From Amphiscolops sp. MND2022 (taxonomy: Eukaryota), in the NCBI GenBank assembly GCA_964187785.1, contig OZ076410.1, positions 64,170,001-64,234,000 on the forward strand: DNA of 64,000 nucleotides, in the 5' to 3' direction. Every line of letters begins with the position of its first letter. Within the stretch, counting starts at the first letter, position 1. Both the position numbers and the translations under genes were made by a program. Of this stretch, positions 1,130 through 52,922 are shown piece after piece. Below the pieces are notes generated by a model. It worked only from the letters and a program-made list of their open reading frames with translations, did no database searches and was not told the DNA's origin.

Positions 1130-1140
1130 CGCGAATGTAA

Positions 1141-12929: not shown

Positions 12930-12954
12930 TCACTTTCTCTCGCAACCTCCACCA

Positions 12955-15180: not shown

Positions 15181-15191
15181 CGTCCATCCTT

Positions 15192-17393: not shown

Positions 17394-17465
17394 AGTTTGC
17401 TTCCTCTTTGTGTTGCTCCATTCTCATTCAGAAATCATTTGTAGACTACAGATACACGGGAACGG

Positions 17466-18014: not shown

Positions 18015-18022
18015 AAATTATC

Positions 18023-19390: not shown

Positions 19391-19393
19391 CCA

Positions 19394-20029: not shown

Positions 20030-20106
20030 AAAATTGTAGCCATATTGTTATTATTACTCTGATAATATACGAAATAACCCCAACACCAAGTTTTTTGTAC
20101 AATTCT

Positions 20107-20639: not shown

Positions 20640-20675
20640 GAAACATTTTAAAAGTAGGAGGCGATCTGAAAAGAA

Positions 20676-23600
20676 CTAGCCATTTTCATCAAACTTCCTC
20701 AGTGAATAATGCCCATAAGCTAGAGACCGTACTCCATCTTCAAGTAGGTAGCGTTTGTCATCATAGGAACTGACGGCTATTTTATTGACCCGGTTGACAA
20801 CAATTTGATAATTTTCGGACTTCAATTGTGTCATTGACTTACGAACAGGCTGTTTATCGAACAAGCAGGACTTGAACAAATCGTGGTGGAGAGTCTTTTT
20901 CACACTCTTTTGAACGCCCTTGGCGCTCTGCTTGACGCCGCCTTGGAATTGAATACTGTACAGTTTTGATCGTAAGCAAACAATTTCAGTCAACACTTTG
21001 CCTTGCAGCTCGTCGGTCATTGTCAGTGGGACTTTTTTGTTTGATTTATCATGGAGGAAGTGTGTCTCTGGATATTCGGATAAATCGAGCAAGTGTTTGA
21101 ATGAGACCATCTCAGTATATAAATCTTTCGTTTCTATACGGTAAAAAACAGAGTCTGTATCTTTGTAACAAACCTTCAAGTTTTTGTGATAACGAGGTTT
21201 CATTTCTTCGTAATGAAATTTGTACAGACAAAGTTTTGAGAGATCAAGAATAGACGCACCCACAGGAGTTGGTTTGTTCCAGAGTATTTTGGATGGAGTC
21301 AAAGTTACAGACATCAAACTGTCGTGAATGAATTGAAACCCCTTGAAGGTTGGCTTTTGAAACGCTTTCTCAGCCTGTTCTTTGCTCGAAACGAAGCTAA
21401 TCTTTCTGCGGTTACGTAAATTCTCCATTGTTTTGCCGAAGCAAGCATTGCTCATTAGTTTGTAAAAGTTTTTCTCAAAGTCGTTGACTGCTTGCTTTCT
21501 CATCACAGTGTTTTTTGATATATAGTCTCCCAGCCTTTTGCTCTGTCTGAACTGGATCACGCGATGCAGCTGTTTAACTTTCAGACCATGTTTGATGTAA
21601 ACTTTCAAATTACGATAGTGGCATACATAATTGTTCTTGTCAAAGAGTGTTTCAATCAGCTTGTTAGGACCATCTGAAGAAACTCTAATAACAGAACTTT
21701 GCGCAAATGATGAAAGCCAAGACTGTTTGATCGTGAGCTTTTCAGGTGCCAAAGGAAGATCATTGTGTTCATCATGCAATGAGGATGGATATTCCAAATC
21801 AACCTCCACAAAGTATCCCACTGGAGAATCATCGTCAGTCTGAAGAATTTGTGAGAGTGTTATCGCGTCATTCCATGCATATTGATCGAGTGGGAGCATT
21901 TGCTGCATTGTTCCAGCATACAAAGACGTCACATCAAAGAAGGCGCCAAAGACCGAAGGCTTTGTGTCGTCAAACGACTCCATATAAGAGTTGTTGGCTT
22001 CAAAATGACGCAATTCGCCAATTCCATTTATCCCTCCACGAATGCCTCTCTCGAAAAAAAGTAGCATGTCAACATCTGTCAAAAGTCCCAGTGTTGCTCG
22101 CGTTGTTATGAGCATTGCCTCCTAGCTCAGACTAGGTGCCGAAAAAAAATGCGCTGGATCCAGGGAATACACTTTCATACAAACTTTCCTAAACAGTTGA
22201 AACACATCGGCTAGGATGAAAACGTCTTATTTCAGATAGATGTCATGATAGTCGCCAAGACATTGGCATTGAAAAAGGTTATAAATATGGAGTGCCCGTG
22301 CGTATTGAGCTTCAGGTATATCGATCTTTCCAGTCAATGAATTTTTCCAACAGTTTCCAAAGGGTGGCAAGGGTTCATTAAACTTTCCAAAAGAATCTAA
22401 ATAGCTGTAAGGAAAAAATCCTTTTTCAGTAAGCAGCGTCCAGTCTACCTCGGGATTGGTTTGAGTGAAGTGATCTTTCAAAAGCAGAAAGTCTTCCTTC
22501 TTTAATGTTTTCGCTAACGCATCGAGACCTTGAGCCATGAACTGAAAGCTATCGATAAATCTCAGAGCGTTGGAAACTTCAACAACTTTACCTTTCTTTG
22601 TTGTGTAGGAGCCCACAGGAACTGTAATCGAAAACGAAATAAAAACTTCGTCGGTTCTTGAAATGGCAGACAATTTTTCATGCTCCTTCAGCAACAAATT
22701 TTTGATGATATGATGTGAATCATAGCGAGAGAGGTTATGAAAAAAGACAGGCAAAAAGTTGAAAGATCGCGCTTTCAAATTACATTCAGAATGAGCCACC
22801 CCGAAAACGAAACCCGTGAGGTGGCATTGATGCACGACTCTGAGACCATGATCCACATTGGCGCCACAGATACAACACTCGATTTCAGGCGCAGACATCA
22901 ACTGCTTTCGCTCCGATTGTGACAATTTCAATTAGCGATGTTTTTGCTTCTGAAGGTAGGTCCAAGACAACCAACTTCTCAACGTATCCATCAAGTGCTC
23001 AATACAATCCTTTCCTTTATAAAAGGAGCTCTTTGCTATGCTAGAACTTCGTTGATCGAAAAGCACAGCACCGAAACTTGCCAGATATTGTTTTTCAATT
23101 TCAGTTGTGTGTGAAGTCATTCGCGTTTGCTGAGAACCGTTGACACTCGGGACATCGATAGCTTCCAAGTCTGCATAGACAACAAAAGGACACCATTGTG
23201 TTTTTTGCCAATTGTTGAACGACAATGTCGTATCGCATTGAGGCATTGTAATTTCCAGTGGTTTGTGATCCTCGCAAAACTCAAAATGTTTTCTGTAATT
23301 CGATCGGATGATGGGTTGAAAGCAATTGCCACAAAATTTACTCTTCGCTTTTTTGAAGATCGATGCAGTTGGTGCATTAAGTTCGAAAAGTTTTTGATTA
23401 GGCAGTAGTGACTTTTCTGGCCCTCCAACAACAATAACAATTTAATTTTCCGACGACTGGTTCGGTTTTTTGAGTGATAAACATTTTGCAAAGTCTCGTT
23501 TTCAAATCGATACACGGTAATCGACAGATCATTGCGTTTTTCGAAGAAGCGTATTTTGCTCAAACACATTGGAAAGTCACTTTTCTGGAAATGTAGTTCA

Positions 23601-24169
23601 TCGAATTTATCTACATAAGATGATGGTCGGTCAACATTCTTCTTTTGAGGATACAAGGCCGCCAATTCAGAATACAGAAAGCAAAACTCGTCCCGTTTGT
23701 TCTTCACATTCAATATGCTTCTTCGTAGGCCACTGAGAGAGGCGGGAGTCTCAATATAGGAAGATCCCGTCTCCCTAATGGGGACAGCGACTTTGATTTC
23801 CACAGCTAAAAGTGATTCAACAACACATCCAGAACCCGCAGTACAGTAAATGTTCAATTGAGAAATCAATTGGTCCACGAAATGATTGTAATCGTCTTCA
23901 ATAACTTCATGCCCGAATCGTTCCATTCTGGTGTGAAAATAAACGACTAATCTTTCACCCTCCAGAGGCTTACAGAGTTGCACATGGATAGTTAGGCCGA
24001 TGCGAGAGCTTCCATCATCCGGTAACTTTGCGTTTATGAAAGTAATAATATGTTTTGTGTTGGATATCAAATAGTGGAAAGGTTCGACGTCGTTCTTTTC
24101 AAGATCCAAACGATACACCGTAAAGGAAGACTTTATTGCAGTTTTGATGGCAGAAGCTGAAACTTTCAC
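20676..24169 (-). pseudogene. polB: Protein-primed family B DNA polymerase (with endonuclease-VII-like Zn motif), disabled
   Basis: FFHNLSRYDSH and RFIDSFQFM (exonuclease), RGGING, FDVTSLYA, KLMSNACFGK, YKDTDS. In-frame stops at 22932-34, 22227-29 and 22122-24; frameshift near 23350. Confidence 0.95.
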
Positions 24170-24536
24170 TAAAGTTCAATCGCTTCGTAACTTGACTATT
24201 TGATTGAATGGAATGGAAAGTGCGCAAATGTTCATTGAAGGGCACTTGAGCTCCAAAAATGGTTGAACAACAATTGCATTTAAAATTGCCAGCAAGGTTA
24301 TGTTGATTTCTCAAATGGCGAAGTAAATTCCTGGTTGAAACAAATTCGGTCTCACAGTGAACACATCGAAATTTTGATTGGGACAATGTTGGTTCTTTTC
24401 CATGCTTTTTTCGAGAATGCTGATAGAGTGTCTTTTTAGAAGCAAAAACTTTTTGGCAGTCGTCACAGCGATGCATCTTTTTGAGAATCATCAAATCTTC
24501 ACGCTTTGATTTTTTCACTTGCAGAAAAACGACCAA
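24099..24536 (-). CDS. Three tandem C2H2 zinc fingers, probably the frameshifted N-terminus of pPolB
   Basis: CDDCQKVF..KKTLYQHSRKKH, CVHCETEF..TRNLLRHLRNQH, CNCCSTIF....FNEHLRTFH; overlaps the pPolB frame start near 24170. Confidence 0.75.
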   Translation of the reverse strand: MVVFLQVKKSKREDLMILKKMHRCDDCQKVFASKKTLYQHSRKKHGKEPTLSQSKFRCVHCETEFVSTRNLLRHLRNQHNLAGNFKCNCCSTIFGAQVPFNEHLRTFHSIQSNSQVTKRLNFSESFSFCHQNCNKVFLYGVSFGS

Positions 24537-24880
24537 AAAAGAAAACCATTTTTCAACTTATTGGTTATTGGAAAAAGCGCGGAGGAATTTGATGATTCTC
24601 GAAATTACCTTCAGATTGTTTTTAAAATCTTTAAAATTTGTCAGAAAACATTCAGCAGTTGGCCTTTCAAATTGGTTTTGTTTCTATCAACGATGGTTCA
24701 ATTCAATAATTGAATAACAGAGTTAAAATTCTCGTTAATACAGCTTGATGACTTTGTACGGAAAGATGGTTTCATTATCTAGTTTGAACAATTGTCAAAG
24801 ATGGTCAAAACTGTCAAGATATCAAACATAACCTTGCTAGTTTGAAATTCAAATTGTCTTACCACTCTCAGAATTTGAAT

Positions 24881-25019
24881 GCATGTATTAAGATTAGGGA
24901 TCCATGATTGAGTCTAAGATTTCTATCTTAGAATTTTGGGATCCATGATTGAGTCTAAGAATTCTATCTTAGAATTTTGGGATCCTTTTTTGAGTCTAAC
25001 CCCCCCTTCCCTTACTACT
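24881..25019 (-). repeat. Polinton right terminal inverted repeat
   Basis: GCATGTATTAAGATTAGGGATCC...CCCTTACTACT, reverse complement of 10944-11082. Confidence 0.95.
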
Positions 25020-33069: not shown

Positions 33070-33964
33070 TGTTTAAATACTTTTGATAAATGATTTGGGT
33101 GTTCTCGTAACTGAAATCTGTTCAATCTAAATTTTTCTTAGTTTCTGCTTGTTTTCGGCTTGAAGCGTGAGATGAAATTTAACCTCGACAGTACACCGAG
33201 AAGTCGAAAAATTGACAAAATTTTGGCAAAATTTTTTCAAAGCTTCATTTCTCCACAAATAATAGCCGCAGCTCCAATCGGTTTTCTGTTCCTGAAACCC
33301 CTTTACCTAAGCTTTCAAATGCACACTAGTTAGGTCGCGAGTTGGCGCCACTTGTTGGGGTGAGAGCGCCACCAAAATATCGGTTGAACTCATAACTGAA
33401 GTTTCATTGAAAAAACTTCTATATGCGTTTTCAATGGTGGCAAACTGTGTTACTAGAGTGGGACAGTAATTTAGTTAGCAAACAGTTGCTCAGTTATTGA
33501 GAAAAAACGAATTTTCTGGAATGTCTTTTTTTGCAATTTTTCACTTTTTTTCAGTTTCTTTTTTGCCAGTGGCTGGGAAAAAAATTTATATTATTTATAT
33601 AACAATTCACACCAGATAGTCCAATCGATTGTCGATAAGAAAGGCAATTTTTCGTTTTCCTCTATGCTTTTTGCGTGTCGTAATTTATTATTGATTGCTA
33701 AAAAATCGCTGTCCTCATTTGAGGACGAAATCACTGTCGAGGTTAATAAGATGAGTTCATTCCATTTCCATGCCATGCAGTTCTATGATTACTAGTGGTT
33801 GAAAAGCATGAATGTGTCTCAATAAATGGAATCGCATGGAGGTCCCATATGGTTTCCGGATTTCTTTCAGATTTTATTCAAAACTATAATGCTACCTCCA
33901 ATTAGCCTTAGAATTGATTGTCAGAAAAAAATAACGACAAACAGCAAACAAAACTTATTTATGC

Positions 33965-34405
33965 TGAACTGTTAAAGACTTGTTTGATGTTTGACTTTAA
34001 TTCTTTTATTGACCACATAAGAAGTTCTTACTAAGTCTTAACAGAATACCGTCTAGCTAGCTATTCTTCTTTTACTGAACTGAGTAGGATGATATCAAGC
34101 TGAGATCTCAGAATTCTTTCTCTTCTAAGATGAGAGTACTGTTTGATTACAACATTCAAGTTACTCTGAGTATATAGATTTAGCTAGTACACCAAACAAT
34201 AATGAGATTAAGTAGAATCCAAATCATTATAAGATGAAGTTAAAGGGATTACATTTTATAATGGAATCATTAGAAATGTTAGCGTCTCAATAATTGAAGT
34301 ATTAACTTCTAGATAGAATGGCATCTGTCATGCTATTATGTCACGAAGTTTAATTATACTTTTACAAATATTAGGATTCTCGATGTCATGCATCATGACG
34401 TCACA
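33965..34405 (-). repeat. 3' LTR of the Gypsy element
   Basis: TGAACTGTTAAAGACTTG...CATGACGTCACA; about 5 substitutions versus 51321-51761. Confidence 0.92.
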
Positions 34406-35178
34406 ATCGACCGGGTTTTTGAAAAAGTAAAATATATCAATATGTTTAGAATATGTTTTAAACTTGGGTTTTGTACTAAAGGTGTTTAATGTTTCATGTT
34501 ATATTAGAGTACCATACTTAAGGAGTGAGAACAACCTAAGACGGTTTGAACTTCTTAGTGATTTGGCGGTTTACATTGGTGCAATGTTTTTCAGTCAAAA
34601 AAAATTGATTGACAGTGTTTTTCAAGTTCTTGTTTGACAACCTTGTGGTAAGCTCCATCGGCTTTGTTTAAAAAGTATATGAGTTCTCCAAATGAGTATT
34701 CGTATGAAAACTTTTCGAGTTGAAGAACATTTCTAAAAGTTGTCAATGAGTTGTGAACAAACATTGGCAAGTAGTGAACAAAATGTGAAGAAGTCAAGAA
34801 TTGCAAAGGTTCATTTCATTTCCAAGAAAGTGAAGAATAGTCTTTTCGGAAAGTATTTCAAACTTCAAATTGTAGTTCAAAGTTCTAGAGAAAATAGTTG
34901 TTAAATAGGAAGAGATCTTGTTAAAAAGGAAAGAAAGATGAGAATATATTGAGTAATATAGGATGTGGTATAGGTAAATTTTTTTGTACTATGCATAAAG
35001 AGATGATAAGTTGCTAAATACCATCATATAAGGGGTATGATTACAAATCAATAAGAGTATAGCAAGCATCATATGATTAGGATGATTACAAATTAATAAG
35101 ATCAGAGCATCAACTAATTGATAAGAATACAATAATAGATTGAGGATTATACGATGCAAGCACTAAATAAATTTAAGG

Positions 35179-36406
35179 TTATACGGGAGGGATTAGACTA
35201 AGAACTAAACTAAAGGTTATACGAGTTATTAGAAGTTTATGAGTTATTGATAGAAAGTTTGAAGTTTGAAAAGACGTGTAGTGAGCCATGTCGATGATGA
35301 AATTTGTGATGATGGACGATGGCGGCAGGTGAAGAAGGGAAGAAAAAGACAATGTGACCACAGTTGGAGTTGAAGAAGTGAGGAAGAAGTGACGATAATG
35401 GGTGGTGGTTGACAATGTCAGAGAAGTGACGAGTGACGGTGTCCAAATGGACAGCGAAGACGAGAAGCAGCGACGGAAGTAAAGAAGTGGCGATGTGAAT
35501 AAGAGGTCGAGAAGCATGTAGTGAAAGATGGATGTTGAAATTGATGAAATCACTGTTTCCATTAGAGAATTTCAACAGCATCAAAGTATGAAGAAGTTGC
35601 AGAGAAGTGAAATAAGTGAGGTTGGTTTTATGTTAATTTTGGTTTATTTTGTTGGCCAAAAAGGATGTTTTGAAGGAGGGTGTACTTGATGGGTTTCTGG
35701 GTCATAACGTTGTAGTTGTTGAGTATACCCGAAATCGAGAAGGGTAGCGTTGAATGCGTCTATGGCGTCATCTAGTGCGGTTTGGAATTAGGTGTCCTTA
35801 GTTGTAGATGCCGAATTTAGGACAAAAACTGTTTCTGAAGTGGTCTCGCACACAGCGATTTTTGTGCCTGCAACATGAATGCGAAAATATTGTCCGAAAT
35901 TTGTCTGTTTTTTCTTGACTTGACATACATTGTAAAGAACTTTGAGGAAGGAACGTCGGGTATGAAGAGTTACATTGCCTTTGTTAACTTCCAGTGACAC
36001 TTTGTAAGCCATAGTGTGGAATATGACAGCTTTCAAACTGTGTACTTTGGAGGTTGTGGAATCAACAAGTTTTTTAATTTCAGAACTTTGTGGAGCCAAT
36101 AGAAGAAAAACGAGCGCTGAAATCTTGGTAGAAGTTTTTGGAGTTTGCAGAGGCTGAACGAAGTTCAGAAGGAGGAAGAAGAATAGAAGTTTCTAAAACA
36201 GAGGGAGTCTTAGGTTTGAAGACGAAAAGCAAGGAGTTTTTGTTAAATAATCTGGTGCTATAATATGTTTTTCGTGTTTGTATTGTTATATAATCTGGTG
36301 CTATAATATGTTTTTCATTTTTGTACTGTAGACGAAAAGAAATTTTGAGAAAGAGAGTGCTAGAAGATAGGTTAGGAAGTGAAATAGGTGAAACTTTTGG
36401 TGCCAT
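35179..36406 (-). pseudogene. Accessory ORF fragments 3' of env, unknown function
   Basis: ATG-initiated overlapping ORFs 36080..36406, 35788..36099 and 35237..35584/35179..35562 on the element strand with the same codon/composition bias. Confidence 0.4.
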
Positions 36407-36568: not shown

Positions 36569-37824
36569 TTAATGAAGATTAAGAGTATTGAAAAGAGTGT
36601 TCATAGATTCAAGTGCAGATTGAATTGCTTGTGAGGATTGTGTTATACGTTGGGAATCTAGATCTAAAGTTTGAAAAAGTTGAGATGTCCTGTCGTAGCA
36701 ATGTATGAGATGATTGAGTGTGGTAAGTGGAAAATCTGACGGGTTTCGTTTATAAGGATCTAACATTTGAGTGAGATCTTTAAGAGTACGATTGTTCAAC
36801 ATGTTGGAAAGTTTTTCGCTAGTTTTGGAGGAGATTTCTGATTGGTATAACAGTGTTTTTGTTCAGTTTGAACTGTGTGATTTTGTTCAGTTTGAACCAT
36901 ATAAGTAATGGTTTTTGCGGCTATGAACAAAAGTTCATTATATGAATGAGATTGTTTTGAGAGAGCTGTATAATATGAGATGTCTTTATCATCTAAGGGC
37001 GATGAGACAAGGTGTTTGATGACTGTTGAAGGTTTGACAATCTGAGTAGGAATGTTGCAAGGTAACAAAAAGTCATCAAAATGGATGAGACATTCTTGAG
37101 GTACAATGAGAGGACGAGCTGTACCATTATGCGGGAGCAAACAAAAATCTTGTTTGATAGGGTCATAATTGCGAAGATATCCAGTTATCTTTGAGTGATC
37201 GATGGTATACAAATTTGTCATAGTGAGAGGTGAGGTGTATTTACAGTTCGCAAAATTGTAAATTTGAGGTTTATTGTGTTGAAGAAAGCGAGTATAGGTT
37301 AAAAGATGAGTGGTTTTTTTGTGCGGTAGAAAGGAAGGACGGATCTTTTTCATCAGTTTTGAGATCATATATGGATGGGCGGAGAAAATTAAATTGAAGA
37401 GAAAATATTTTGATGCCGTTGTCAAGCCAGTAGTGATATGGTGCCATAATTTTAGAAGCGATAGAAGTGAAGAAGTCTTGGTTTTTATCATAGAATTTGA
37501 AAGTGTAATCAGTTGGGTGCATATAGAGAGAAGGAGTTGTGATTTGAAAGAGAAGCGATTTGAAGGTGTTTTATTTTTTGAAGGAATATTTTGATGTTCC
37601 ATTTGATCGTGTTTATTTTTTGAAGGAATATTTTGATGTTCCATTTGGTCAGTAAGAGGATTGTCAGGCGTTTCTTTATGGTCGAGGAAGAGAACGGCAG
37701 AATCATTTGAAAGAGGTTTAGTAATAAAATCAGTAGTGTGCATTTCAAGTTTATTTTGAAGATCGATTTGTTCTTGAGTTATTTGTGAAGTCATGTTATG
37801 GAAATCTAATGGTGCTTGTGTCAT
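36569..37824 (-). pseudogene. Accessory ORF 3' of env (342 aa plus frameshifted 77-aa tail), unknown function
   Basis: Long ATG ORF 36796..37824 with an in-frame 42-bp duplication (HDQMEHQNIPSKNK); overlapping continuation 36569..36802. Confidence 0.6.
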
Positions 37825-38058: not shown

Positions 38059-40807
38059 CTAGGTTAGAGGAGTGAAAAAGTCAGAATGATCAGATGTAAA
38101 AGATGGCGGAGGAAAGGAGTAATCGGTTTTAGAATATATGCGGACAGGAGTGTTCATCTCACAATCGACAAGTGATGTATTTAAAGGATAATCATTAGGA
38201 CTTGTGGTGACAGAAGAGTAACGTGGTAAGGATGATTGAGTATTAGATTTTGGTTGAACATTATGAGGTGTTTGATTAGAATATTGTTTTCGTTTTGGAA
38301 GGAATTTAAAACGTGTCATTTTGGAAATCCGATTTGATCGTTTTGTATAGAAAGGTGGTGGCGAAGTAATTCCAGTTGGATTTGAGGAAATACCTGTTGT
38401 ATCATTAGGATTGAAGGAGGATTCGTATAATGGGTTCTCAGTAATGGTTGACAGTTGATTTGAACTTTGTGAAGATGTTTTAGAACGAACACTTTTTAGG
38501 TCTTTTACCATGTCAGCCGTAAGAATATTCAAAAAACCATGTGCAAAAGAGTTAAGAACTGTAATATTTTGTTTAAGATTGTACTTGATCGAAACAGTTT
38601 TATAAAGTTTAACGATGAGTGTTAACATTGTCTGCAGAAAAAGATATGTAGAAAAGTAAATTCCACATTGTGTCAAAATGTAAAATGGGTATCCAAATAA
38701 AGCAATAAAAGCATCAGAGAACCAAGTAGGAGTGAAGAGTGGGGTAAGATTGATTAAACGATCATGAAGTCCAACTCGAAGTGTATTGTATGGATTATCA
38801 TGTGGGGAATTTGTATCATAATCAGGAATTTGTGTTTTAGATGAAATAAAAGAAAAACTAAGAGCTTTTCCCAAAAGTTGGAGAGTAGTATCAGAGTGTT
38901 TGGAAAATAAGATTCTGTTCCAAAATTGATTTAAATCAGCATTTGAGTATATACCAGCATTTTGAGCTGTAAATGTATTAGGTCGTATTTTAGTTTTAAT
39001 TTGAGGAGTAAACATAAGTGGTGGTTTTCGTTTAATAGGTTCAGGGCTAAGTATGTAAAAATCTTGATCATCAGAATCTGGGTCAAGTTCAATAATGTTT
39101 TTGGAATATTGTCGCATGTGATAGGAGTAGCATAATCATATGTTTGTCGTGTAATATGATCAACGTACATAATAGTGTCTTTAAAGTGAAGAGGAATTCG
39201 ATCGAAACAACGATCAGCAATGTATAATGGAGAGAGAAAGTGTGGGCAATCATATAGACAAGCAGTAGATCCTTCAACATAGAGGAAGTGACTACGATTT
39301 CCTGTTAAAAGGAACCCATCAACTTGAGGGTTTTGTACTGACATTGCAAGTATTGTAAGAAGTTGATTTCGTTCTAATTCGCATACTGTATGAAGAGTAT
39401 TCTGTTCTTGAACAGTCATAGAACGAAAGACATGATTAATAGTGTAATCAATTTTGGTATTTATATGAGCATCATAGTCTATGGTAGCAAAGTTATTAGA
39501 AACGTTCAATGCGGGGAATACATATTTGTTATTAGAGTGGTTTAATACAAGTTTGCCAGGAATATATTTATTGATTATAGAAGTAGGATTTGGTTGTCCT
39601 GTATGCTTATTAAATCCTTCGGTATAAGTGACAAAAAGGTCAGAGTATTGGGTAGAATATAAAGGTTCAGGTTTTCCACAAAAGGTATGTGCGTTAGGAA
39701 ACACTTCAAAACGTGAAAACTTGGATTATGTGGAGTTTCAGTATGTGGAGCACGGATGTAAGGATAGGAAGTACCTTTAATACCATTATGAGGAGTAGAT
39801 TTTTTGGGAATTGAAGAATGTACAAAAGAGTCTGTTTCAATCCAATAGCGATCTTCGATTTTAGTCATGCGTCCAATTAAATCTTGTAATGTAAAAATAA
39901 GACAGAAATCATCACTAAACCATAAAAGTGTGAAAGGAGTTTTTGTAGTGGGTTTACAGAAACCATCTGCAAAGTAACATGGTCGAGTGTGACCATCAAT
40001 TATCATAACGTTTTGTGTATCATCATAAGTTAGTTCTATTTCAGATATAGCAAGACGCCAACTAACTAAGTTGACTTCAAATTGGTGATGAGCAGGACAA
40101 TTATGGTAGGGGTTGCGAAGTGGGTCATATATCCAAGTTTTGTCAGCAGGCATATAAGTAAACGTACCTGTATACATTTTGTTAAGTTGGTAGACAGTAA
40201 AAAGGGTTTGAAATCGTTCTTGTTGTTCTTGAAAATAGTGGTCTTCTAAAAGTGTAAAAGTTTTGTTTTAATTTAAGTTGTTTAATATTTTATTATCAGT
40301 TCCAATAAGGTGTCTAATAAGATTTTTACATTCAAGAGGATCAAGTGTAATAGGAAGTGGCATCGTATTATGATTCCAATCAGTTCTATCAACACGTCGA
40401 TATTTAACATTGCCTTGGAAGCAAACATTTCGTTCTTTCTTTGCATAGGCGTCACATTTGAAAGCGCGAATACGTTTGGCTTTTGCTCCTACAAAAACTC
40501 GGGCTTGAATATTTGCATGTTGTATGTTAGAAGGAGCTTCAGTACATTGTTCAACATTAAGAAGGTTAAATTGGCGAAGGTTATGTTGTTTTTCACAGTC
40601 ATAATGAGAGACCATAAGATTTGTTATATTTGGATCATCTGATGGGAGATAACGGTCTTCATCAGTTGGTGTAATAGGAATAGAGAATGTGAAATATGGA
40701 TTTAGGTAAAAGAAGATTATATGAGTTATGAAAAGTGAAAGATTTGTGTTAAAAGGATGTGGTATAATTGATACCAGAAAAAGGGTTGTAGAAAACATAT
40801 TTGCCAT
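38059..40807 (-). pseudogene. env: Envelope-like class III fusion glycoprotein (chuvirus G / herpes gB-like), in four fragments
   Basis: Hydrophobic N-terminal leader; SHYDCEKQHNLRQFNLLNVEQC, AFKC, LDPLECKNL, CYFADGFC, VCELERNQLLTILAMSVQNP, CFDRIPL..KD.IMYVD.ITRQTY.YATPITC; C-terminal TM FIALFGYPFYILTQCGIYFSTYLFLQTMLTLIV plus cytoplasmic tail. Confidence 0.78.
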
Positions 40808-41912
40808 AGGCTAAAGTATGTAGTTCTGGATCACGATTAAAATCAACTAAAATTACTTCAAATGGAGCAGGAGTTGTTTTGTGTTTTATCTTTGCAACGT
40901 GAAATATACGATGAGGGTTGAGACCTTGAAATTTGACTCTAACTTCAAACTTTAATTCTAAATTAGGAGTGTGGAGACGTTTAAGTTCGGTTTCTTTTCT
41001 TTTATTGGAAAGAGAATTGTTTGTAGTAATAAATCGTTCTGCAAGGATAGGAAATCGAGGATCGTTTTGAGGATTGTATATAGTGATTCCGTCTACACGT
41101 ATAGGATAATCTGCAAAGTTGGAAGTGGGTGGTCTTGATTGATACTATGTAAAATGTTCAGGGATTCTTACGTGAGGAGCAACAGGTGTAGGTACTAAAA
41201 CTTCAGAGAAGAGATTGCCAGATAAATATGCAGTTTGAACGTCAGAAGAAAGTAATGAGGCTGTGTCTAGTCCGGAGGTAAAGTAAGATTGTGGGGCAAA
41301 GTCTGAAGAATATACAGTATCAGAGGATATAGGTTGAGCGTGTTGTCTAAGAAGACGTAGTGCAGAGTTGCTTGATAATGCTGAAAAATTGAGTGTCGAT
41401 GAATCAGTAGCACTGAGACGTCGATTTGGAAGAGGTCTAAGATTGTATCTATGTTGAGGTATAATATCAGAACTAGAAGTGTCTGTTTGTGGTTGATACT
41501 CTGAGGCAGATTCTAACAAGTTAGTAAGAGAAGTAGAAGGACGTCGTAGTGGTTTTAAAGGAGGATAGAGTTGAGACTGACTAGAAGATTCAGATGGTAA
41601 GTGTAATGTAGGTAAGGGAGTATATTCAATATCAGGTATTTGTACTTTATCTAATTTAGATGGAAGATTGGGTGAAACACGAGCAGTTTTGATGGCGGTT
41701 GGTTGTTTATAATTTTTAAGAAGTGCTACAGTATTAGGATGTGGTATGCGAAATATAGGTGTATGAATTATTGGTTGAGATCTAGAACTAGGGGTATATG
41801 GTATTTCAGGAATAGGTGGTCTACTAATATGAGTAGATGTTATGTGAGGAGATGGTGTAGGTGAAGTAGTTATGATGTGAGATCTTGGTCGTTTAGAAGG
41901 AGTTACAGGAGT
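40749..41912 (-). pseudogene. Extra ORF between pol and env (P/S/T-rich N-half, globular C-terminal domain), one internal stop
   Basis: One frame is open from 41912 to the stop at 41145-47 and continues YQSRPPTSNFADYPIRVDGITIYNP...FEVRVKFQG...FEVILVDF to TAA at 40749-51. Confidence 0.55.
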
Positions 41913-42088
41913 TCATTACTAGTTGTAGTAGTATTTGAAACTGAGGATTAAGATGGAGAAGATATACTAGGAGCAGAAGGAGATGTTCCAGATGAAGAAT
42001 CCAGGTTGGTAGTCCGGTTCGGTTAAACAAGATTTCGATTAATTTATGTGACTAGTTGAAGCAATGGCTGAAAAAGCGAATGAATGGT

Positions 42089-45000
42089 TCAAAGTTTGGA
42101 TGGCGGTGTGAAAATACGATAATCCATTTTTGGTTGTTGTCTTAAATTGTAATGAGTTTTGGTATCTCTATTATTTGTAATAGATGATGGTGATTGGTTT
42201 TGAGATGGGTGACGGGTTCTGTCAAAGGAGTTATTAGTACCAGGAGCTTGGAGAATTGGTTGAGAAGGTATATTAGTAGTTGAAGGAAGATTAGTATTTG
42301 ATGGAGTTCGTGTAGAACGGTCATTTGGTGACAAGGTTTGGTCATCATCTGGTAAAGATGTATCATCAGAAAGGGATTCATCGGAATTAAAAGGTGAGGA
42401 GTCGCTATTAGTATATTGAATGGGTTTTGGAATGTTATAGGTAATTGAATCAGAATATCGCATGAAATTACGGAGGTGCGGACATAAGAGTGATTCTTTT
42501 GGATAATAAGGTATTAAATGATTTCTATGTACGTGGGATGTAGAACCACCTTGTGCAAGAAGTTCATATGTAACATCGGCAATTCTGTCAAGAACTTTGT
42601 ATGGACCAATCTGAAGAGGTTTAAGTTTGTCAGAGAAGTGAACATGTGGAAAATGACGTTTGAGTACAAAAGTGCCAAAAGGAAGTGGTTTTCCTTCATG
42701 ATAAGTTTTAGTTATATAAGCGTGAGAATTTATTTTTTTAAGAGTATAAAAGTATACTGTAGAATAAATTTGTAACATTGCAGTTTCTACAGCGATAAAC
42801 GATTGTGGAATCGGTTTTGAAAGAGTTTTATAAAAGAATGGATTTAAATCCGTTTTGTCATAGTGTGAATGTTCTGGAAGTTGTGAACAATATTGTGAGA
42901 TACAAGTTGAACTGTTACGATTAAAGTTTAGATCAAATGTAAGTGGGATTCTGGGTCTTGTGTGAAACACTATTTCAAATGGAGAAACATTGAGTTCTGA
43001 AAGAGGTTGTGAATTGTGTGCATAAGCATACATGTGGACTTAAAAAGCCCAGTCTTGAGGGGTGTTATGAAGGAACATACGAAGGTGTGTACCAAGATTT
43101 CTATTTTGTACTTCAACAAGGCCATTTGTCCAAGGAGAATAGGCTGTTCTGGGAGAGTGCCTACTTTCCATGGGTGTAGATAGGTGGGCCATGTCTTTAT
43201 TGATATATTCGGAGCCACGATCAGTGACAAGGTAAATAGGTGGGCCATATTTGGTAATCCAGTGGTGTAATAAAGTTTTAACTGCAGTTTTGGCATTGTT
43301 CGATTTGATTGGGACAGTAACAACAAAGTGGCTGAAAGCGTCAACTATGACGTGAATGGATGATTTGTGTTGTGAAGGAGGATTTATGGGTCCTTTTGTA
43401 TCCATTGAAATTCTGTAATTGAAGGAAGGAGCATGTTCCGAAAACGGTTGTGTAGGAGCAGTCTGTATTTTCATATTGAAATGTTTGTTTCTTTGACATT
43501 CTAGACAATCATGTATGAAAATAGAGAGCCATTTTTCGAGATAAGGAATGTGATAATATTGAGAAAAAGTATTATAAGTTCTTTTGATACCTGTATGAGA
43601 ATGGTCATGAAGTTTGGTAAATACAGTTTGAAACATTCTAAAAGGGAGACAAATTCTAATAGCACTATGTAGTAATTTTGGAATTGAAATAGGGTGTGTT
43701 TCAGGAGGAAGTGGATTTGTTATATAAAGGCTTATAAGGTTGGTAGTGGTGTCAATGAAAAGTTGTGCAAACCTTTTGTAATATTCATGTAAGAAAAGAT
43801 TACCAGTAATTAGAGGGGTAAGAAATACAGGTTTTTCATTTCGAGATATCCATGAATATACAGTCCGAAGAACTGGGTCTTGAGATTGTTGAACTTGGAG
43901 TGTTTTAAAGTCTAATGAGTAGTCGTCAGGAAGGAAGAAACCTTGAAAATACGTGCTGTTTTTAAAGAAGGAAGGATCGTAAATGGTACTACTTGGGGAG
44001 AGTGTGTCATAGGAGTTGAATTTGTTTGTACATCTATAGCAGAAGTAGATTCTGATATTGACGATGGTGTTGTGTTGAGTTTTGATTTAGTTATTGTGGA
44101 AAAGGATTCTTCTCGTTCGTGTAACGTGTCATTGGGGGAAAAAGAAGAAGTATTTTTTGGAATTCTAGTGTAAATGTGTTCATCATCATCACTTGTAACA
44201 TCGGTATCGTTGAGTAGGAGAGATTGTTGATGAAGGGACTTATTATCTTTTTTTGATAGGTGCTTTGAATTTGGCTTGAAAAGGAGTAACAGCTTTAAAG
44301 GAAAGTGAGTTTAAAGGTTTAACTATAATATCGTTTCCTTTGTCATTAATACGTAATGAAAATTGGTCTGTTCCATAATTCCGAGAATTGGTTGAGAATC
44401 GTGTTTTTGATGAGGTAAAACTTCTTCATGTGTTATTAAGTAATGTACGGGTTTAAGTGTGTTAGTTTGTAATATTGTAAAGTCAATATGAGGTGGAAGG
44501 TGTTTATGTTTGAGTTGATTTATTCGAAGTTCTTCTGTGAATGACCTACTAAGTAAATCAGCAACGGAAAAGTTTTTTTCCAGGAGTATGTATAATTGTA
44601 AGTTTTGAAAAGTTTGTGAGTTGCATTTGTGCTCTATAAAAACGTGGACTGAGGGATCCCTTTTTTGTAAAACAATGTAAAAGAGGTTTATGGTCAGTGA
44701 ATATATGGATAGGATGGGGTGATCCGATTATAATAAATTCGTAAATTTGAAGAGCGTGTACTATGCCAAGAAGTTCACGTTCAAGAGTAGGGAGTTTTTG
44801 TTCTTGTGGGTTCAATATACGTGAATTGTAAGAGACAACTTTCATTTGATTTTGTTCATTCAATTGAAAAAGGACAGCACCTAATCCAATGAGTGAAGCG
44901 TCAACAGTAATGAAAAACGGATGTTTTGTATAAGAATTGTAAGTGCTGTGGCAGAGGTAAGAGATGTTTTTAATGTTTGAAATAAGCCTTCATGTTCTTC

Positions 45001-47081
45001 AGTCCATTTCCAGGGAGTATTCTCATGTAATAAATCATAAAATGCTTTGAGATTAATGTGAAGTTTTTCAATGAACTTTGTGCAAAAGTTGAGTGCGCCT
45101 ATGAAACTCATTAGGGCAACTTTTCCAGTGGGAGAAGGAATTTTGTGTATTGCTGCAATTTTGGAATGTATGGGTTTGGTAGTGTTGTAACCTATTTCAT
45201 GTCCTAGAAACTTGATTTTAAGAAGCATGAAAAAGGATTTTTCAGGAGCTAGTTTAAGATTATGTTTTGTGCTAATAAGATGTAATTGTTCAATAAGTTG
45301 AAACATATGTTCTTTAGAGTTCGATAAAAGTAAAATATCATCGATATAAACAAGAGCAAAACCTTGTTCAATAAGTGTTCTTAAGAGTGTTGACATTTGT
45401 TTAGTAAAGAATTTCGGGAGTCCTTTGAGACCGTAAAATCCTCGTATGAAAGCAAAGAGTTTGTCGCCAGAAGAGAAACTTGTAAGTTGAATAGTTTCTT
45501 CGTCTAGAGGGGTATGTGCATAGGCGTAGATGAGGTCTATTGCACATTTGTATTTCTTATTTGCGCGTGCTAGTTGTGGAGCAAGAGGTTCAATACGCCA
45601 GGATTCGTCTGATTGTTCTGTATTGGATTTAAAGTGTCGTGCATCTAATACACATTTGATGAAACCGCCTTTGGGTATGATAATGAGAGAATTTAAATAA
45701 GTGGTACCATAAACTGGTTTATCCTGAGGAGAAGAACCAATTTGTTTTATAATATTATGTTTTTCTAATTCTTTAAGGAGAGTATTGAGTTTATCACGAT
45801 AGTGAATTAATACTTCAGAAGGACGTTGTGTAATTAATTGAGCATTTGGTTTGAGTCGGATACGGAGAGGAGTTGCAATCTTGCCAACGTCATTTTTATG
45901 GGTAGCATAGCAGGTCTTATATTTGAGTAACAAATTACAAAGTGTAACATATTCAGTATCTGTAAGGTCAGAGAATTGGAAGTTGAATTTGTTGATAACT
46001 TTGAGATTTTTTGGTGAACATGGTAGGGAAGGGAATACTCTAGGTTGTGAGGAATGAGAAGTAGGTTGTACATTATAAAGAGACGGTGTACGTGGTAATG
46101 GATTAAGATTAGTCATATAGACTTGATGTAGTGAAAAGGGTATTGAAGAAGTTGGTTGTTGTTCTGGAGGTAATGACTAGTTTGTTGGTGGTATAGGTTC
46201 TGTAAGTTCCGGATGGTACGTATAGGTGACATTGTGTATAAGCGTGTTTATGTCATTTACTCGGTAATAATTAAGTTTTTCATTGGTTATTGGGATTTCA
46301 ATATATCCAATATGTCCTATAAGTAATGTTGCAATGTGATTTGTAGAATTTTGAATAATTGTAGCACAAGTGTCTGGTTTGTCGTCTGTAAGATCTTCAA
46401 TGAAGTTGAAAGTTGAACGAAATTTTGAGGAATAGTAGGTATGTGGAATGGTGGGGAAAACTGTTTGTGGGGTGTTGTCGAGAAATGAAGGTTGTAGTAA
46501 TTGTTTATAGGAAAATGTGCAATTTTTGAAGAATTTGGTTTTAGACGAATTTGTGTTTTGGAAATAATTCTGTAGAGATAAGAAAAATATGTATAATCTT
46601 TGGATAATAGTGAAGTAAATGTAGCATAATTAGGATGTACTCTTGAGTGGTGTTTAAATTGTAATGTAAAATCTTGAATGTTTAAATTTTGTATATTTTC
46701 TTCAAAGAAGGGTCTTCCAAGGATATTGTATTTTATATCAGCTACTGCAAACGGTACTGTAAATTGACGGGAGTCATCTTCTATGGTAGTATTTAAAGTA
46801 ATGGTGACGTAGTGTAAAATAGGAACTTCTGTTTGATTTGCGACTGTCAGTGTTTTTGACGAATTAGGTGGGTTATTTTGTTTACTTTCAAGAAGTTTTG
46901 CAATAGTAATATAGGTAGGATGGTTTAATACAGAAATTGAAGTGCCACTATCCAAAAGGAAAGAAATTTCGAGTCTTGAAGGATAGTCACGTTGGTTTTG
47001 ATTGGGAGAAGCATGTGTATATAAAGAGTAGAACCAGCTTGTAGGAGTTAATGCATTTGCCATTTCTGTTGGGTGATACAT
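42089..47081 (-). pseudogene. pol: Gypsy pol: protease, RT, RNase H, integrase (multiple frameshifts/stops)
   Basis: FLLDSGTSIS (protease); YIDDILL, KFLGHEI (RT); ERELLGIV...IFTDHKPL (RNase H); H..GI...C.ECQ, ISMDTKGP, TDRGSEY, NGLVEVQNR (integrase); LQIGPYKV (GPY/F). Confidence 0.95.
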
Positions 47082-47216
47082 GTGTATTTCAAAGTTAATT
47101 GGATCTGTAGAAGTTTGTGGTTGAATATTGTTAATTTTGTTTCGTGTACGAGAATTTGAACGAGAACGAGAATATCGAGAATCTCTAGGTCTGGACGGCG
47201 GTCTGTAAGAAGAAGT

Positions 47217-50157
47217 TTATCTTTGAAAGGTATTATCTCTAGAGTAAGATCGAGACTTATATAGGGGACGTGAATCACGTCTGTAAGGTGATCTGTAAGA
47301 AGATCTGTATGGTGAACGATATGAACAAGAATCTCTTTGACAGTCGTCATACCGAGACCGGGTATAATGTGGAGGAGTAGTAGTTCGATCATAATTGTAG
47401 CGAGTTCTAGAAGTAGATCGTTGTCGATATTGAGGATTATTGGATTTTTGATAATCATGTCGAGATGTACTTCGACTATGATATCGAGTGGGATAGTCAT
47501 TTGGTCTTGTATCATATCTTGGTGTTTTATCATTGGAGGAAGAACGAAAATATTGTACAAAAGATTTTTGAGGAGACTTTGATTGTGCATAAGTATCACG
47601 TTTATCTTCATCACCTCGTTGTTTTTTGAAACAGGTTGAGATAGAGTGATTTGTTCTATGGCAAAAGGAGCGATACTTTTTGTAAGCGGGTTTTGTTTTA
47701 TTATTTGGATCTCGTGGTTGTGTAAACATTATTTGATCAGATTGTTGTGAGTCTAATGTCTGAGTTTGTAGTTGTTTTGTAATATTATTTGACTTCGAGG
47801 GTTAGATCATGTGTGCGTATTTTGTCATTTGCTATGTCTTCAGCATCTACAAGTTTTACAAGTGTATGGAAAGGAATTGAAGGTTCTAAAACAGTAGAAG
47901 TATGTTTAACTTGTCTTTCGTTCGCAAAATCCTTAAGGTTTTTGGGAAGTCCTTTGGCAAAGATTTCATTGCATTTAAGGTTGATGGTTGATGCATTTTC
48001 ATTACACCAGCCCTTTTCAACGAGTTGTTGGACTTTAAGTGCAAAATAACGAACAGTTTCATTATCCTTTTTTGTTGAACTAAGAGCTTCAACTTGTGCA
48101 TAATAAGCGTTTTTCTGTGATTAAAATTGTTTTTTAAAAGCTTGTGCAAAAGCGTTCCAATCTTGTTGATGAGTATCGTTTAAGCGAATGTAGCAACTAA
48201 GAGCAGTTCCAGTGAGTGAACAATGTACAAAAGCCATTCGGCGAGCATGCCAAAATTTATATTCATTAACAGTGGTAGGTTGTAATCCTAACGAAAATGT
48301 AACACGGGCTTCAATGTGTTGTAAGTATTCTTCTGGTGTGTAATTATGGTCTAAACCATCAAAAGGTTTAATAGGTTCTGAAATAGATGTAGCAGAATTA
48401 ATGTATGTTGGAGTACTTGGAGTAGATAGATGTAGAGTGGTTGGAGGTATGGTATGAGTAGTAGAAGGATTAAAAGAAGTGGGAGGTATATTGAGAGCGT
48501 TGGTTTGAGGTTGGGTATGAATTGGTTGAATAGGCGGAATTGTTTGTGTCGTAGTAGAAGGAATATGAGGATGAAAATTTGTAGCAGACGATTGTATATT
48601 TGTATTAGTGGACTGAATCTTATTTGAAAAGGATTGTGAATGGAGATTGGTACTAGTAAGATTGTATGAAAGTGGGTTGTTTTGAATAAGTGGTAAAGGA
48701 GGTCTTGATAAATTGCGAGAAGTAGTAACATTAATTACAGGATTAGTATGTGAAGTATTAATAGTTAATATAGGAGAAGTATTGGATGATACGGATGGTT
48801 GAGCAGGAAGGTATTGTAGTGTTTGATGAGATTGTATGGGTGTAGTATTTGTGTGAAACTGAGTTTCATGTAAGGGGTGTTGTCTGATGGGAAAGGTATT
48901 GGAAGAACCCTGTTGAGGTGAATTATGAGAAGTACTATGGGTAGAATCATCAGATGGAGGAGGCGGTGGATCATAATTTCGTTGTGGTGTGTTTGAGGTG
49001 GTTGTGTGTCAATAGTATTTGTTACGGATAATGTAGAAGGATTTTCTTGGTTGAAAATATGATCACCATGTTCTGTAATGTTTCGGGTAGGTATCTGAAT
49101 AGCATTAGAATCTGTGGTAATAGAAGTATTGGGTGGAAATGTGAGAATGTCTTGTACGGTTTCAGCTGTATCATGTGTTAATTGTGATGGTTGTTGTGGA
49201 GTAGTTGGTTGACGTTGAATTACAAGCTCATCATCAGTAGTGTTGTCTTGAAATGAATTTATATTAGGTCTATTGGCAGAAATTTCAGATAGTACATTTT
49301 CATGATCATTAGTGGTATTTTGAAGTAAATTCATAATAGGTCTATTATCGGAAGTTTCGGATTGTTCGATAAGGAAATCAGAATTGAGTATTATAGAGTC
49401 AATATTAGATATGGGAAATGTTGTGAAATTTTTATAAAAAGGGTGTTTGAAATCATTTCGGATAATAAATGGTAGGAGTTCAGTATCAGTAAGTACCTGG
49501 GGAAAATTAACGTATGCATTTTGATCTCTTTGTTCCCATAATAGTTGATAAATATATCTGAAGATTTTTAAGAGAAAAAGAGAGAAGATTTTGATTTGTG
49601 GTATGGTATCATCATCTAGTATAATCTTTTGGAAAAATCTGTGCTGACAGTTTGTGACTTGTAAAAGATCTTGTTGAAAAATGAGAACTATTATGGCGTA
49701 TAATTTTTGAGTCTATATCTAGTACATCGAAATAGATTGCTTTTTCTTTTAAACTTTTGAGAAGAGAAGGTCGATAATGTGGTGTATCTAAGTTTTCATT
49801 ATGTTCAATAAGTTTGTCTATATGGGTAGTGAAAACATCTTGGATCGATAGTTTTAAATTTTGAGGATGAATAGTTCTGTAAAATGTTCCAGATTTAACA
49901 CCTTGTACTGAATTGAAAATGACTTGAAAAGGTTGTTGCGAAGGTGCAGTGTCGAAGGTTTTATACCTGATGTAATAAAGGTATGCGTCTAATTGTTCTC
50001 GAAGTAATAGTATTGTATGTATTGAGTGTGGTTCAGTTTCAAATGAAAGTGGGTTTGTGTATTGAAAAATTAGATTGTTTAAGAAAGGTATTACATCTTG
50101 AGTTATTGAACGGGCAGATCTTTGTTGTGGAGATAATGTAAATTGAATGGGAAGCAT
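47217..50157 (-). pseudogene. gag: Gypsy gag with long N-terminal extension, capsid domain and CCHC-like knuckle
   Basis: IKPFDGLDHNYTPEEYLQHIEARV...LTGTALS (capsid-like, ~48200-48370); degenerate knuckle SFCHRTNHSISTC and an R/S/Y-rich tail; upstream fragments 48351-50157. Confidence 0.8.
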
Positions 50158-51033
50158 TATGTAATGGTAGGGAGTTTTATATCAGTCACAGTAGAAATTG
50201 TTTAATAAATTAAACAAATACTGGGTGAGAATATATTGTGTAGTGAAATGGATAGGATATGGACGTATTAGGTCTACAAATGTGATTTGTAAAAAAACAG
50301 TAATTATAGTTAAAAAGGTGAGTAAGAATTAATTAGATGTTAGTGAAAGTAGAGTACAAATTGTATTATAAATTACAAGAAGGCCAAAAAGAGGAAGTAC
50401 TATAGTATGTATCATACGAAAGTGAGAGATTGATAGTAGTTGGAAAGAATGAGGAATGTGGACTTAAAGTATTAGAATCTTGGTATGAAAGGGACCAAAA
50501 ATTTGTCAAAGAAAAGTGCAATACCAGCAAGTATACCAAAGGAGAACCAAAGTAAAAATAAAAAGCGTACTAAAGTGTCGACTGAAATCATTAACAAAAG
50601 AGAATTTATGTATTTTATTGTGTTAAAAGTTGAGTTTGTATTAGATAGTAATAGTATTAAAGGTAGGGTAGGTTTTGTAGTATAGCTTTTGTATTATAGT
50701 CTTGATATTATTTGTATTATAGTTTTGATATTATCAGAAGTGAAGTTCGTATTATTGATCCGCGGCAGTGTTTAAGAAAGTTAAAATGTATATATTAAGA
50801 TATTATTGAAGGAAATGGTATGAAAGAGGTGAAAGGAGAGAAAATATGTTATGTTTGTGTGCCAACTTTATTTAAGTTCATCCAAGCGGCTAGGACCAAA
50901 GTATTTGACTAGCAGGAATCGCCGGATAGCACGATTTGAAAACCAACACGAATCGCACGTCTGCGGTTGGAACAAAAAGAAAAGAAAAAGCAACACGAAT
51001 TCACCTTGTGGTGGTTGAAACGAAGAAATTTCA

Positions 51034-51166: not shown

Positions 51167-51320
51167 ATGTGAATTAACATTGATATACAAGAGAAAGAGG
51201 AGGCGACACGGTGTGTCCAACAAAGAAATATCGTATGAAAAAGTTGAGAAAATGTGTACAAGAGGAGTGAATTTGAGGTACTAGGGGAAGAGAAAAGAGA
51301 ATTTTCGTGGTCGCACTAAT

Positions 51321-51761
51321 TGAGCTGTTAAAGACTTGTTTGATGTTTGACTTTATTTCTTTTATTGACCACATAAGAAGTTCTTACTAAGTCTTAACAG
51401 AATACCGTCTAGCTAGCTATTCTTCTTTTACTGAACTGAGTAGGATGATATCAAGCTGAGATCTCAGAATTCTTTCTCTTCTAAGATGAGAGTACTGTTT
51501 GATTACAACATTCAAGTTACTCTGAGTATATAGATTTAGCTAGTACACCAATCAATAATGAGATTAAGTAGAATCCAAATCATTATAAGATGAAGTTAAA
51601 GGGATTACATTTTATAATGGAATCATTCGAAATGTTAGCGTCTCAATAATTGAAGTATTAACTTCTAGATAGAATGGCATCTGTCATGCTATTATGTCAC
51701 GAAGTTTAATTATACTTTTACAAATATTAGGATTCTTGATGTCATGCATCATGACGTCACA
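51321..51761 (-). repeat. 5' LTR of the Gypsy element
   Basis: TGAGCTGTTAAAGACTTG...CATGACGTCACA, direct repeat of 33965-34405. Confidence 0.92.
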
Positions 51762-51861
51762 ATACCTGTCAATGCTTTTCAACAAGCTAAATATTTATTT
51801 TTGTTAGCTTTCATGATATTTTTTTCAAAAGTCATTCATACAACTGGCACATTCAATTCAG

Positions 51862-52375
51862 GCACCTTCAGTTTGCAACGACAAGGTTGTAAGAAAAAGC
51901 ACCATCTGTAAAGGAACGAATGACCCACATTACCACGAAGTGAGAGAATTCTGCCAACTTGATTTTTTTATCCGATTCTATTATGTTACCCGTGCTTACA
52001 ATGATACTGTGAATACGTGTATTCGCGACATGCAGCAAGAGTTCAAACCAGATATTGTGATGTTCAATTCTACAGTATGGGATGTCGCGCGATATGAAGT
52101 ACCCTTTCAGCTACCGATTTTTGAACAAAACGTGAACAGGGCGTGTTCTGAATTGAGAAATTCTGTGGTAAATTGTACGTTCATATGGCTCCATCAGCCC
52201 CCGGTTAATGCCAATTGTAGTCGAGGTGCAGATGGTGCTACTAGAGAGCTCGTAAGAGACAACGTGGTAGACTGGATACTGAAAGCTGTCAATCGAAGTG
52301 AGGAACTCTGCAAGGCGAATGACTTTTATTCAATAGATCTGTACAATCTAATGAAAGATAGAACAAGCTGGCTAG
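51862..52375 (+). CDS. PCED1: PCED1-like gene, exon 2
   Basis: Acceptor ATTCAATTCAG|GCA in phase 0 with exon 1; HYHEVREF...FIRFYYVTRAY...PDIVMFNSTVWDVARY matches the PCED1 core; donor CTAG|GTGAGT (phase 1). Confidence 0.88.
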
Positions 52376-52922
52376 GTGAGTTGTTCTTGAGATGTTATTT
52401 TGGGCGATGTCCATGTGAACTATGGTACTGAAAAACATTTACTAAATAAAGTTTCATTTTTCAATGGATGGGATTAATTGTACTTCTGTTTTAATTATTT
52501 CTGCATAAGCTGTAGAAACCGTAAATGTGATCTTATTTGTGGACCCGCTTTGTTCGCCAATTTTGATTGGCTACTCGAAATCTTAGGCTAATTGGTTTAA
52601 TTCTCGTAGCAGCGGGAAGCGTTTTATTGAGATGAAACGAACGAGTGTTATTTATTCGTACGGTGAGATATTCGCTTGCATTCAAAAGGCTTAGTTATAT
52701 TCTTTTGTTCAAGGAACAAAGCTTATCGCCCGAGGAGAATCGAAGGCTGTATAAAATGGTAGTGATTAATTGTGCACTATATATTGAATCCACAGGTGTA
52801 TGGTTATTGATACATTGTATGTCTTTATTATTGAACTTCGAAGTCAATGATTTTTGTAGCCTGCAGCAGAAATATTTCTGTGCCCCACAAGAGCTTATTT
52901 TATTTGAATGAAAATTCAAAAG

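Follow-up and report, generated by a model that had tools for sequence, protein, structure and literature searches.

Env-carrying Ty3/gypsy elements are well documented in animals. Chary & Hayashi (PMC13524379) described 1,512 of them and, in the accessible part of their survey, found the gB-type env on Ty3/gypsy elements to be widespread across many animal phyla and about as common as the F-type. The combination of a Ty3/Gypsy element with a gB-type env is therefore already known, and the rarity of class III env on Gypsy elements that was implied in a preliminary description of the present locus is contradicted by that survey, which had no acoel entry in the portions available. The same paper cites Dezordi et al. 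2020 for mosquito BEL/Pao elements with a chuvirus-like glycoprotein. Viral messages that use non-AUG starts and leaky scanning are also known, and the consulted excerpt of PMC3542737 lists the CUG-extended Gag of MLV, the FAST protein of aquareovirus segment 7 and rice tungro bacilliform virus. The biological interest lies in whether envelope-bearing Ty3/Gypsy elements outside flies pass between cells. The window, by which we mean the whole stretch of 64,000 nucleotides that was analysed, holds one such element. In the reading that we favour, with a probability of roughly 0.72, it is a dead Ty3/Gypsy copy with a broken env, whose unbroken relatives encode a predicted class III fusogen and five conserved accessory ORFs, one of which, ORF-X, probably starts at a CUG codon, with env probably being reached by leaky scanning.

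The element that carries the env in the window is almost certainly a Ty3/Gypsy LTR retrotransposon; it is 17.8 kb long and its LTRs are 98.9% identical (Table 1). The best PDB match of gag-pol was the Ty3 Gag-Pol (E 2e-51), with foamy Pol at 1e-18, and Pfam recognised the RT, RNase H and integrase, the protease being assigned by weak matches (E 0.15-0.2) and its position. The domain order in Pfam and the Ty3 match agree with the host element that was named in the preliminary description. Its pol, which was described as complete, does have all of the domains but is not intact because gag-pol carries 13 breaks, and env does not lie straight after pol, as had been stated, since a conserved ORF (42004-40749) intervenes. 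To judge from its reading frames, the window copy is dead: in addition to those in gag-pol, there are three breaks each in ORF-X, env and ORF4, at least one in ORF5 and one in sORF2, a load that neutral decay could explain, since an estimate from five LTR differences has a wide error. Exact 4-bp target duplications flank several relatives of this element. The primer site of families A and C (defined below) is TGGTGCGACCACG, the 13-nt complement of the 3' end of the CCA-added tRNA-Val(TAC) of the same genome, and the site of families B and D shares a 9-nt core with this tRNA. Priming by tRNA-Arg, which was suggested by the available supplement of PMC13524379, was rejected, as tRNA-Arg(TCG) fits worse here than tRNA-Val(TAC). 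The tRNA-Arg(TCG)-like genes form a long tandem array with a spacing of ~172 bp (G000:C9:57537652-57570596 and beyond), and the corresponding pattern had 314 forward-strand matches genome-wide, most of which, among the matches listed, fall in the tandem array. Before the 3' LTR (34406-34425 in the window), all of the families have an A-run and a conserved CCCGGTCG-like motif in place of an evident purine-rich tract; the motif in the purine-tract position is conserved but atypical (AAAACCCGGTCG-like). The sense strand is C-rich and G-poor between window positions 34000 and 51000 (mostly 5-15% G in a relative). In one family A copy, gag has an unassigned N-terminal domain of ~250 aa and then a long Ser/Thr/Pro spacer before the capsid, and pol has extra regions between the protease and RT and between the RNase H and integrase. 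Similar gag sequences presumably occur in acoel flatworms.

Table 1. Positions of the features of the Ty3/Gypsy element in the window
Feature	Position	Strand	Description
5' LTR	51321..51761	(-)	441 bp, TG...CA; differs from the 3' LTR at 5 sites, without indels
3' LTR	33965..34405	(-)	441 bp; paired with the 5' LTR
Target-site duplication	33961..33964	(.)	left ATGC, right ATAC at 51762-51765; 3/4 match
Primer-binding site, tRNA-Val(UAC)	51306..51318	(-)	one mismatch in the window copy
sORF1	50472..50591	(-)	39 aa; lies before gag and is predicted to span the membrane once; open in the window
sORF2	50185..50415	(-)	about 78 aa, hydrophobic; one stop in the window copy
gag-pol	42089..50157	(-)	PR-RT-RNase H-IN; unbroken relatives have one frame of 2,691 aa; 13 breaks in the window copy
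ORF-X	40749..42004	(-)	putative CUG start at 42004; 3 breaks in the window copy
env	38059..40807	(-)	predicted class III (gB/chuvirus-G-type) fusogen with leader, ectodomain of 14 Cys, TM and long tail; broken at 3 sites in the window copy
ORF4	36569..37824	(-)	about 470 aa, soluble; kept in all four families; 3 frameshifts
ORF5	35632..36114	(-)	about 150-160 aa; families A, C and window lineage; stop near 35788

Several other elements share the window. The stretch at 10944-25019, which we take to be a Maverick/Polinton-like element from an inspection of its translations, is bounded by inverted repeats (10944-11082 and 24881-25019) and contains what are presumably integrase-like ORFs (15111-16420) and DNA polymerase B-like fragments (20679-24175), with further ORFs at 16408-20026. 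By inspection, the minus strand of positions 1-8188 holds a BEL/Pao-like element with an internal 1,914-bp unit in about three copies of 99% identity, and a gag-like frame with a zinc-knuckle motif at 63002-63646 is probably part of another LTR element. A plus-strand frame of 204 codons at 51817-52431 adjoins the 5' LTR and has a weak GDSL-lipase match (E 0.099); it is possibly a host esterase exon beside the insertion.

The env reading frame is divided on the minus strand into four fragments (40268-40810, 39575-40267, 38931-39725 and 38059-39135), in which the four-fragment ORF and the motifs quoted in the preliminary description were recovered. Three of the four fragments matched the Pfam family PF24664 (Monjiviricetes_fusion) at collinear profile positions (E 0.0019, 2e-12 and 0.0013), and in the window copy only the middle one reached the curated cut-off. 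When aligned to an unbroken natural relative of 908 aa, the window env spans 40807-38062 with 86% identity and three breaks: a stop interrupts the frame near 40268, and the frame shifts near 39717 and again near 39100. A hydrophobicity scan placed the leader of this relative at residues 17-35 and the TM at about 716-734, and its ectodomain has 14 cysteines, so that the hydrophobic leader, Cys-spaced ectodomain, TM and tail that were described earlier can all be seen in it. All 14 cysteines were near-invariant across 26 aligned distant env homologues. No R-x-K/R-R furin site was found in the unbroken relative, and an F-type env, as in the insect errantiviruses and baculovirus F, was rejected on this ground and because the predicted fold agrees with class III. 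An env homologue of 1,323 aa, which was considered as an ORF-X-env fusion, proved to be an internal duplication of env. Tandem elements that share an LTR or an internal segment occur among the relatives.

The fold was modelled as a monomer for residues 42-745 of an unbroken natural copy using a 51-sequence alignment (pLDDT 75.7, pTM 0.54). In Foldseek, the model matched xinmovirus, chuvirus and related glycoproteins (E 3e-25 to 2e-23) as well as HSV/herpesvirus gB (E 4e-12); PH-fold matches were also obtained, and a 46-residue helix is present. Ranks 1-8 of VIA-align were gB or rhabdovirus G chains, all of which are class III, the best being gB domain IV with a Z of only 8.3 (rmsd 3.6, 156 residues). 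The global TM-scores against gB were low (0.2-0.4), and therefore the match to gB holds for the individual env domains rather than for their overall arrangement. The unbroken relative matched PF24664 with an E of 9e-23, which is above the cut-off, while a search of the PDB by sequence with the env profile returned no match and no env-related loci turned up when viral and metagenome contigs were scanned. On the model, the env of the window element very probably belongs to class III (gB/chuvirus-G-like), an assignment that is secure because of the profile, Foldseek, VIA-align and conserved-cysteine results taken together. The agreement between PF24664, the Foldseek matches to chuvirus/xinmovirus G and gB, and VIA-align bears out the class III, non-F-type env of the preliminary description, and the comparison of a model with class III fusogens in Foldseek, which it had proposed, gave class III matches with the unbroken relative. 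Proteins of this family fuse membranes, and the same activity is expected of env; because its predicted fold is like that of gB and chuvirus G, it would be expected to work as a trimer that is anchored in the membrane and not cleaved.

When the 1.07-Gb genome was searched with a degenerate 35-nt env motif, 2,809 exact matches were obtained, against none in the reversed control. This number is a lower bound on the env-bearing loci and does not count full elements; if each were 18 kb long, these loci would make up to about 50 Mb. The env loci fall into four families (A, B, C and D) and the lineage of the window, with an env identity to family A of about 54% for B, 60% for D and 81% for C. Of the 145 matches that were scored for a window fragment, 87 lie in open frames of at least 900 codons, and the env match was stop-free in 31/50, 38/53 and 46/50 of the top-scored copies of families B, D and C, respectively, although such counts are biased upward, as the ranking favours intact copies. 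The search for intact copies that was suggested in the preliminary description thus yielded many relatives with an unbroken env; moreover, an open 2,695-codon gag-pol and an open env were found together in four of the six family A stretches. Several copies have LTR pairs that are 99-100% identical, and therefore the expansion is recent. The dN/dS of env was 0.06-0.11 in three closer comparisons, and sequence comparisons showed that the RT, ORF-X, env and ORF4 are under purifying selection.

Whether the element truly infects from cell to cell is, in our estimation, evenly balanced. If it does, the env in particles or at cell contacts would carry it from cell to cell and into the germ line. Alternatively, env could be kept for a non-infectious job, either in direct cell-cell transfer, in which the small membrane ORFs would take part, or in handling membranes during intracellular assembly. 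The Drosophila MDG1-group elements, according to the consulted part of PMC11952523, have no env and carry a small membrane ORF upstream, and they pass from the soma to the oocyte; the present elements have upstream hydrophobic ORFs that are similar in size. However, purifying selection is strong on the ectodomain as a whole and on its cysteines, as would be expected for a working fusogen, and we regard a non-infectious role as unlikely, albeit a serious contender.

In addition to gag-pol and env, the unbroken relatives encode, as far as conserved frames indicate, five conserved accessory ORFs, which makes this a seven-gene element. The sORF1 of the window is 76% identical to that of family A and has a hydrophobic 19-mer score of 2.56; its homologues in families A, B and C have 39-48 aa. 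ORFs of 70-79 aa occupy the sORF2 position in the same three families, whereas family D has one hydrophobic ORF of 37 aa before gag. ORF4 had a dN/dS of 0.06-0.13 in three closer comparisons; its structural model was poor (pLDDT 43.5) and the Foldseek search with it gave no match at E <= 0.001. In family B, a different-looking ORF of ~310 aa is found at the position of ORF5. No credible match was obtained for ORF-X and ORF4 in Pfam, for ORF-X, ORF4 and ORF5 among the PDB profiles and PHROGs or for ORF4 and the ORF-X domain in the ESM Atlas. The homologues that were retrieved (the best 120 of 283 for ORF4 and the best 120 of 204 for ORF-X) were all at least 41% identical over the matched stretch and none of them was named.

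ORF-X, which is located between pol and env and has ~410-445 codons when counted from a CTG, consists of a Ser/Pro/Thr-rich N-terminal part and a conserved C-terminal domain of ~120 aa. Methionine is absent from every open copy that was examined, and internal Met made up only 49 of the 43,593 residues in the best 120 of 204 ORF-X homologues compared to 738 of 44,048 in the ORF4 homologues. At the conserved start, A-x-x-CTG-GAT was present in 11 of the 12 loci scored and in all five lineages, the exception being a CTT in one family D copy; the count leaves out one further stretch, which gave no site that could be scored. In each lineage, position -3 is an A and position +4 a G, and CTG accounts for 1.0-2.7% of the Leu codons in the family elements. 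The spacers upstream of the CTG (79-342 nt) are not alignable, and in five of six pairs the nucleotide identity was higher 3' of the CTG, with C vs D as the exception. In three closer comparisons, the dN/dS of ORF-X was 0.03-0.15, similar to the RT and env, and the values for ORF-X and ORF4 were higher (0.35-0.46) in deep comparisons, which are saturated. On these ratios, ORF-X is evidently under purifying selection, and its conserved context suggests that it probably starts at the CUG codon.

The stretch that follows this codon points to how env may be translated. Between the CTG of ORF-X and the ATG of env, 0-3 ATGs in any frame were seen against the 6.6-11.3 expected (P 0.0004-0.03 per locus, values that are not independent because the loci are related), and this stretch was the ATG minimum, or tied for it, in all four sliding scans of the elements, in which the 5' leader was likewise ATG-low. 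We consider it reasonably likely, from these signs in the sequences, that env is reached by leaky scanning from the ORF-X message. Several observations speak against it: two or three out-of-frame ATGs are left in this stretch in families A, C and D, short upstream ATG frames are present in family C, the ATG of env has a weak context (C at -3) in families A and C and the window lineage, and no conserved splice acceptor was found. In this model, ribosomes would scan a subgenomic RNA that starts just 3' of the pol stop and that arises by splicing or an internal start; a fraction of them would initiate ORF-X at the CUG and the remainder would traverse about 1.2-1.35 kb of AUG-poor RNA to the AUG of env. 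B and B2 differ in the frame offset between ORF-X and env, which led us to reject a programmed frameshift joining the two. ORF-X could also start at the CUG with env being translated by stop-restart coupling or from a spliced RNA of its own. The env ATG is always close to the ORF-X stop: it precedes the stop by about 56-60 nt in family A and the window and follows it by 1 nt in B and by about 10 nt in B2. The extra ORFs of LTR elements are typically expressed from spliced messages (PMC5408684, in the part at hand). Neither route, however, requires the depletion of ATGs that is seen in all three frames over 1.2-1.35 kb, and we regard both of them as unlikely.

Less probable still is that the CTGGAT is an RNA or DNA signal and that ORF-X receives an AUG from a spliced upstream exon that is joined further downstream. 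An AG is found 26-99 nt 3' of the CTG in each copy that was checked, but in families A, C and D and the window lineage the protein is conserved (LD[S/P]..S..PSAP) from the CTG onwards and thus already ahead of the first AG, and all five lineages have kept the A at -3 and the G at +4. In five of the six copies checked, from four of the five lineages, an in-frame stop lies upstream and no AG separates this stop from the CTG, and an in-frame spliced AUG upstream is therefore excluded in these copies; AGs are present between the stop and the CTG in family D. We favour a start of ORF-X at the CUG.

In the FastTree phylogeny, the env sequences form one clade, (B,(D,(C,(A,window)))), with a support of 100 and a long stem, its outer joins carrying long-branch warnings. 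The integrase identities between the families follow the same order, and env has therefore been inherited together with pol. A recent capture of env from a chuvirus-like virus, as the capture proposed in the preliminary description may be read, is very improbable: the best structural matches are indeed chuvirus and xinmovirus glycoproteins, but the identity to these, the closest named viral proteins, is just 12-15% (22-32% for unnamed database proteins), and the single long-stemmed clade with its branching (B,(D,(C,A))) agrees with the integrase. Taking the favoured reading to its furthest extent, the elements might represent a recently expanding, infectious invertebrate retrovirus with seven genes, a gB-type env and small membrane proteins, an accessory protein that the env message yields from a CUG start, and no fewer than about 2,800 loci with an env, a proposal that we put forward tentatively and at less than even odds. 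Thousands of env loci, many of them unbroken and recently inserted, and the purifying selection on env make this genome a strong natural setting for studying such spread.

Compared with the gB-type errantiviruses of Chary & Hayashi, as far as these are presented in the accessible sections of PMC13524379, the present elements share the Ty3/gypsy pol, the gag-pol-env order, the multicopy state and tRNA-primed LTRs, and the env likewise has a leader, a TM and conserved cysteines, with the furin site being dispensable. The uninterrupted gag, pol and env of those elements are found in the relatives but not in the window copy. Unlike those elements, the present ones are 17.8-18.8 kb long, have a pol-env gap of 1.27-1.7 kb that holds a Met-free ORF, and carry up to five accessory ORFs. 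The first-pass filters reported there (gaps of up to 1,000 nt and regions of up to 10,000 nt, with LTR spacing of more than 14,000 nt excluded) are too small for such elements in gap, region size and LTR spacing alike, and such genes can be overlooked by surveys that accept only AUG starts or short pol-env gaps. In the main text of PMC13524379, as accessed, the terms 'accessory', 'CUG', 'splice' and 'non-AUG' do not appear; the present primer-site sequence is absent from the supplements that were available, whose table rows give coordinates, so that a relative may be listed. Among the top literature matches, no CUG-initiated ORF between the pol and env of a Ty3/Gypsy element was found.

With the mosquito BEL/Pao elements of Dezordi et al. 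2020, as they are summarised in PMC13524379, the present elements have the fusogen class in common, and differ in their Ty3/Gypsy-type pol, whose best PDB match is Ty3. The two small conserved ORFs before gag, at least one of which is a predicted membrane protein, are similar to the sORF1 and sORF2 of the Drosophila MDG1 group in the available text of PMC11952523; the likeness is one of position and size, and the MDG1-group elements lack an env, whereas here the small ORFs and a full env occur together. As in the viruses covered by the excerpt of PMC3542737, a near-cognate start in a strong context would lie upstream of further cistrons; unlike in those viruses, it would here open a separate ORF of ~420 aa between the pol and env of a Ty3/Gypsy element. 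The giant gypsy elements of planarians known as Burro (PMC6431247, in part) are also very long, have thousands of copies and combine an env with accessory ORFs, but they exceed 30 kb and their gypsy-Env-like env lies in frame between gag and pol. Beyond the known combination, the elements are of interest for their complex and conserved set of genes, for the ORF that probably starts at a CUG and for how far they have expanded. The conserved accessory genes and a message read through a CUG start and leaky scanning would extend the expression style of the complex retroviruses to Ty3/Gypsy.
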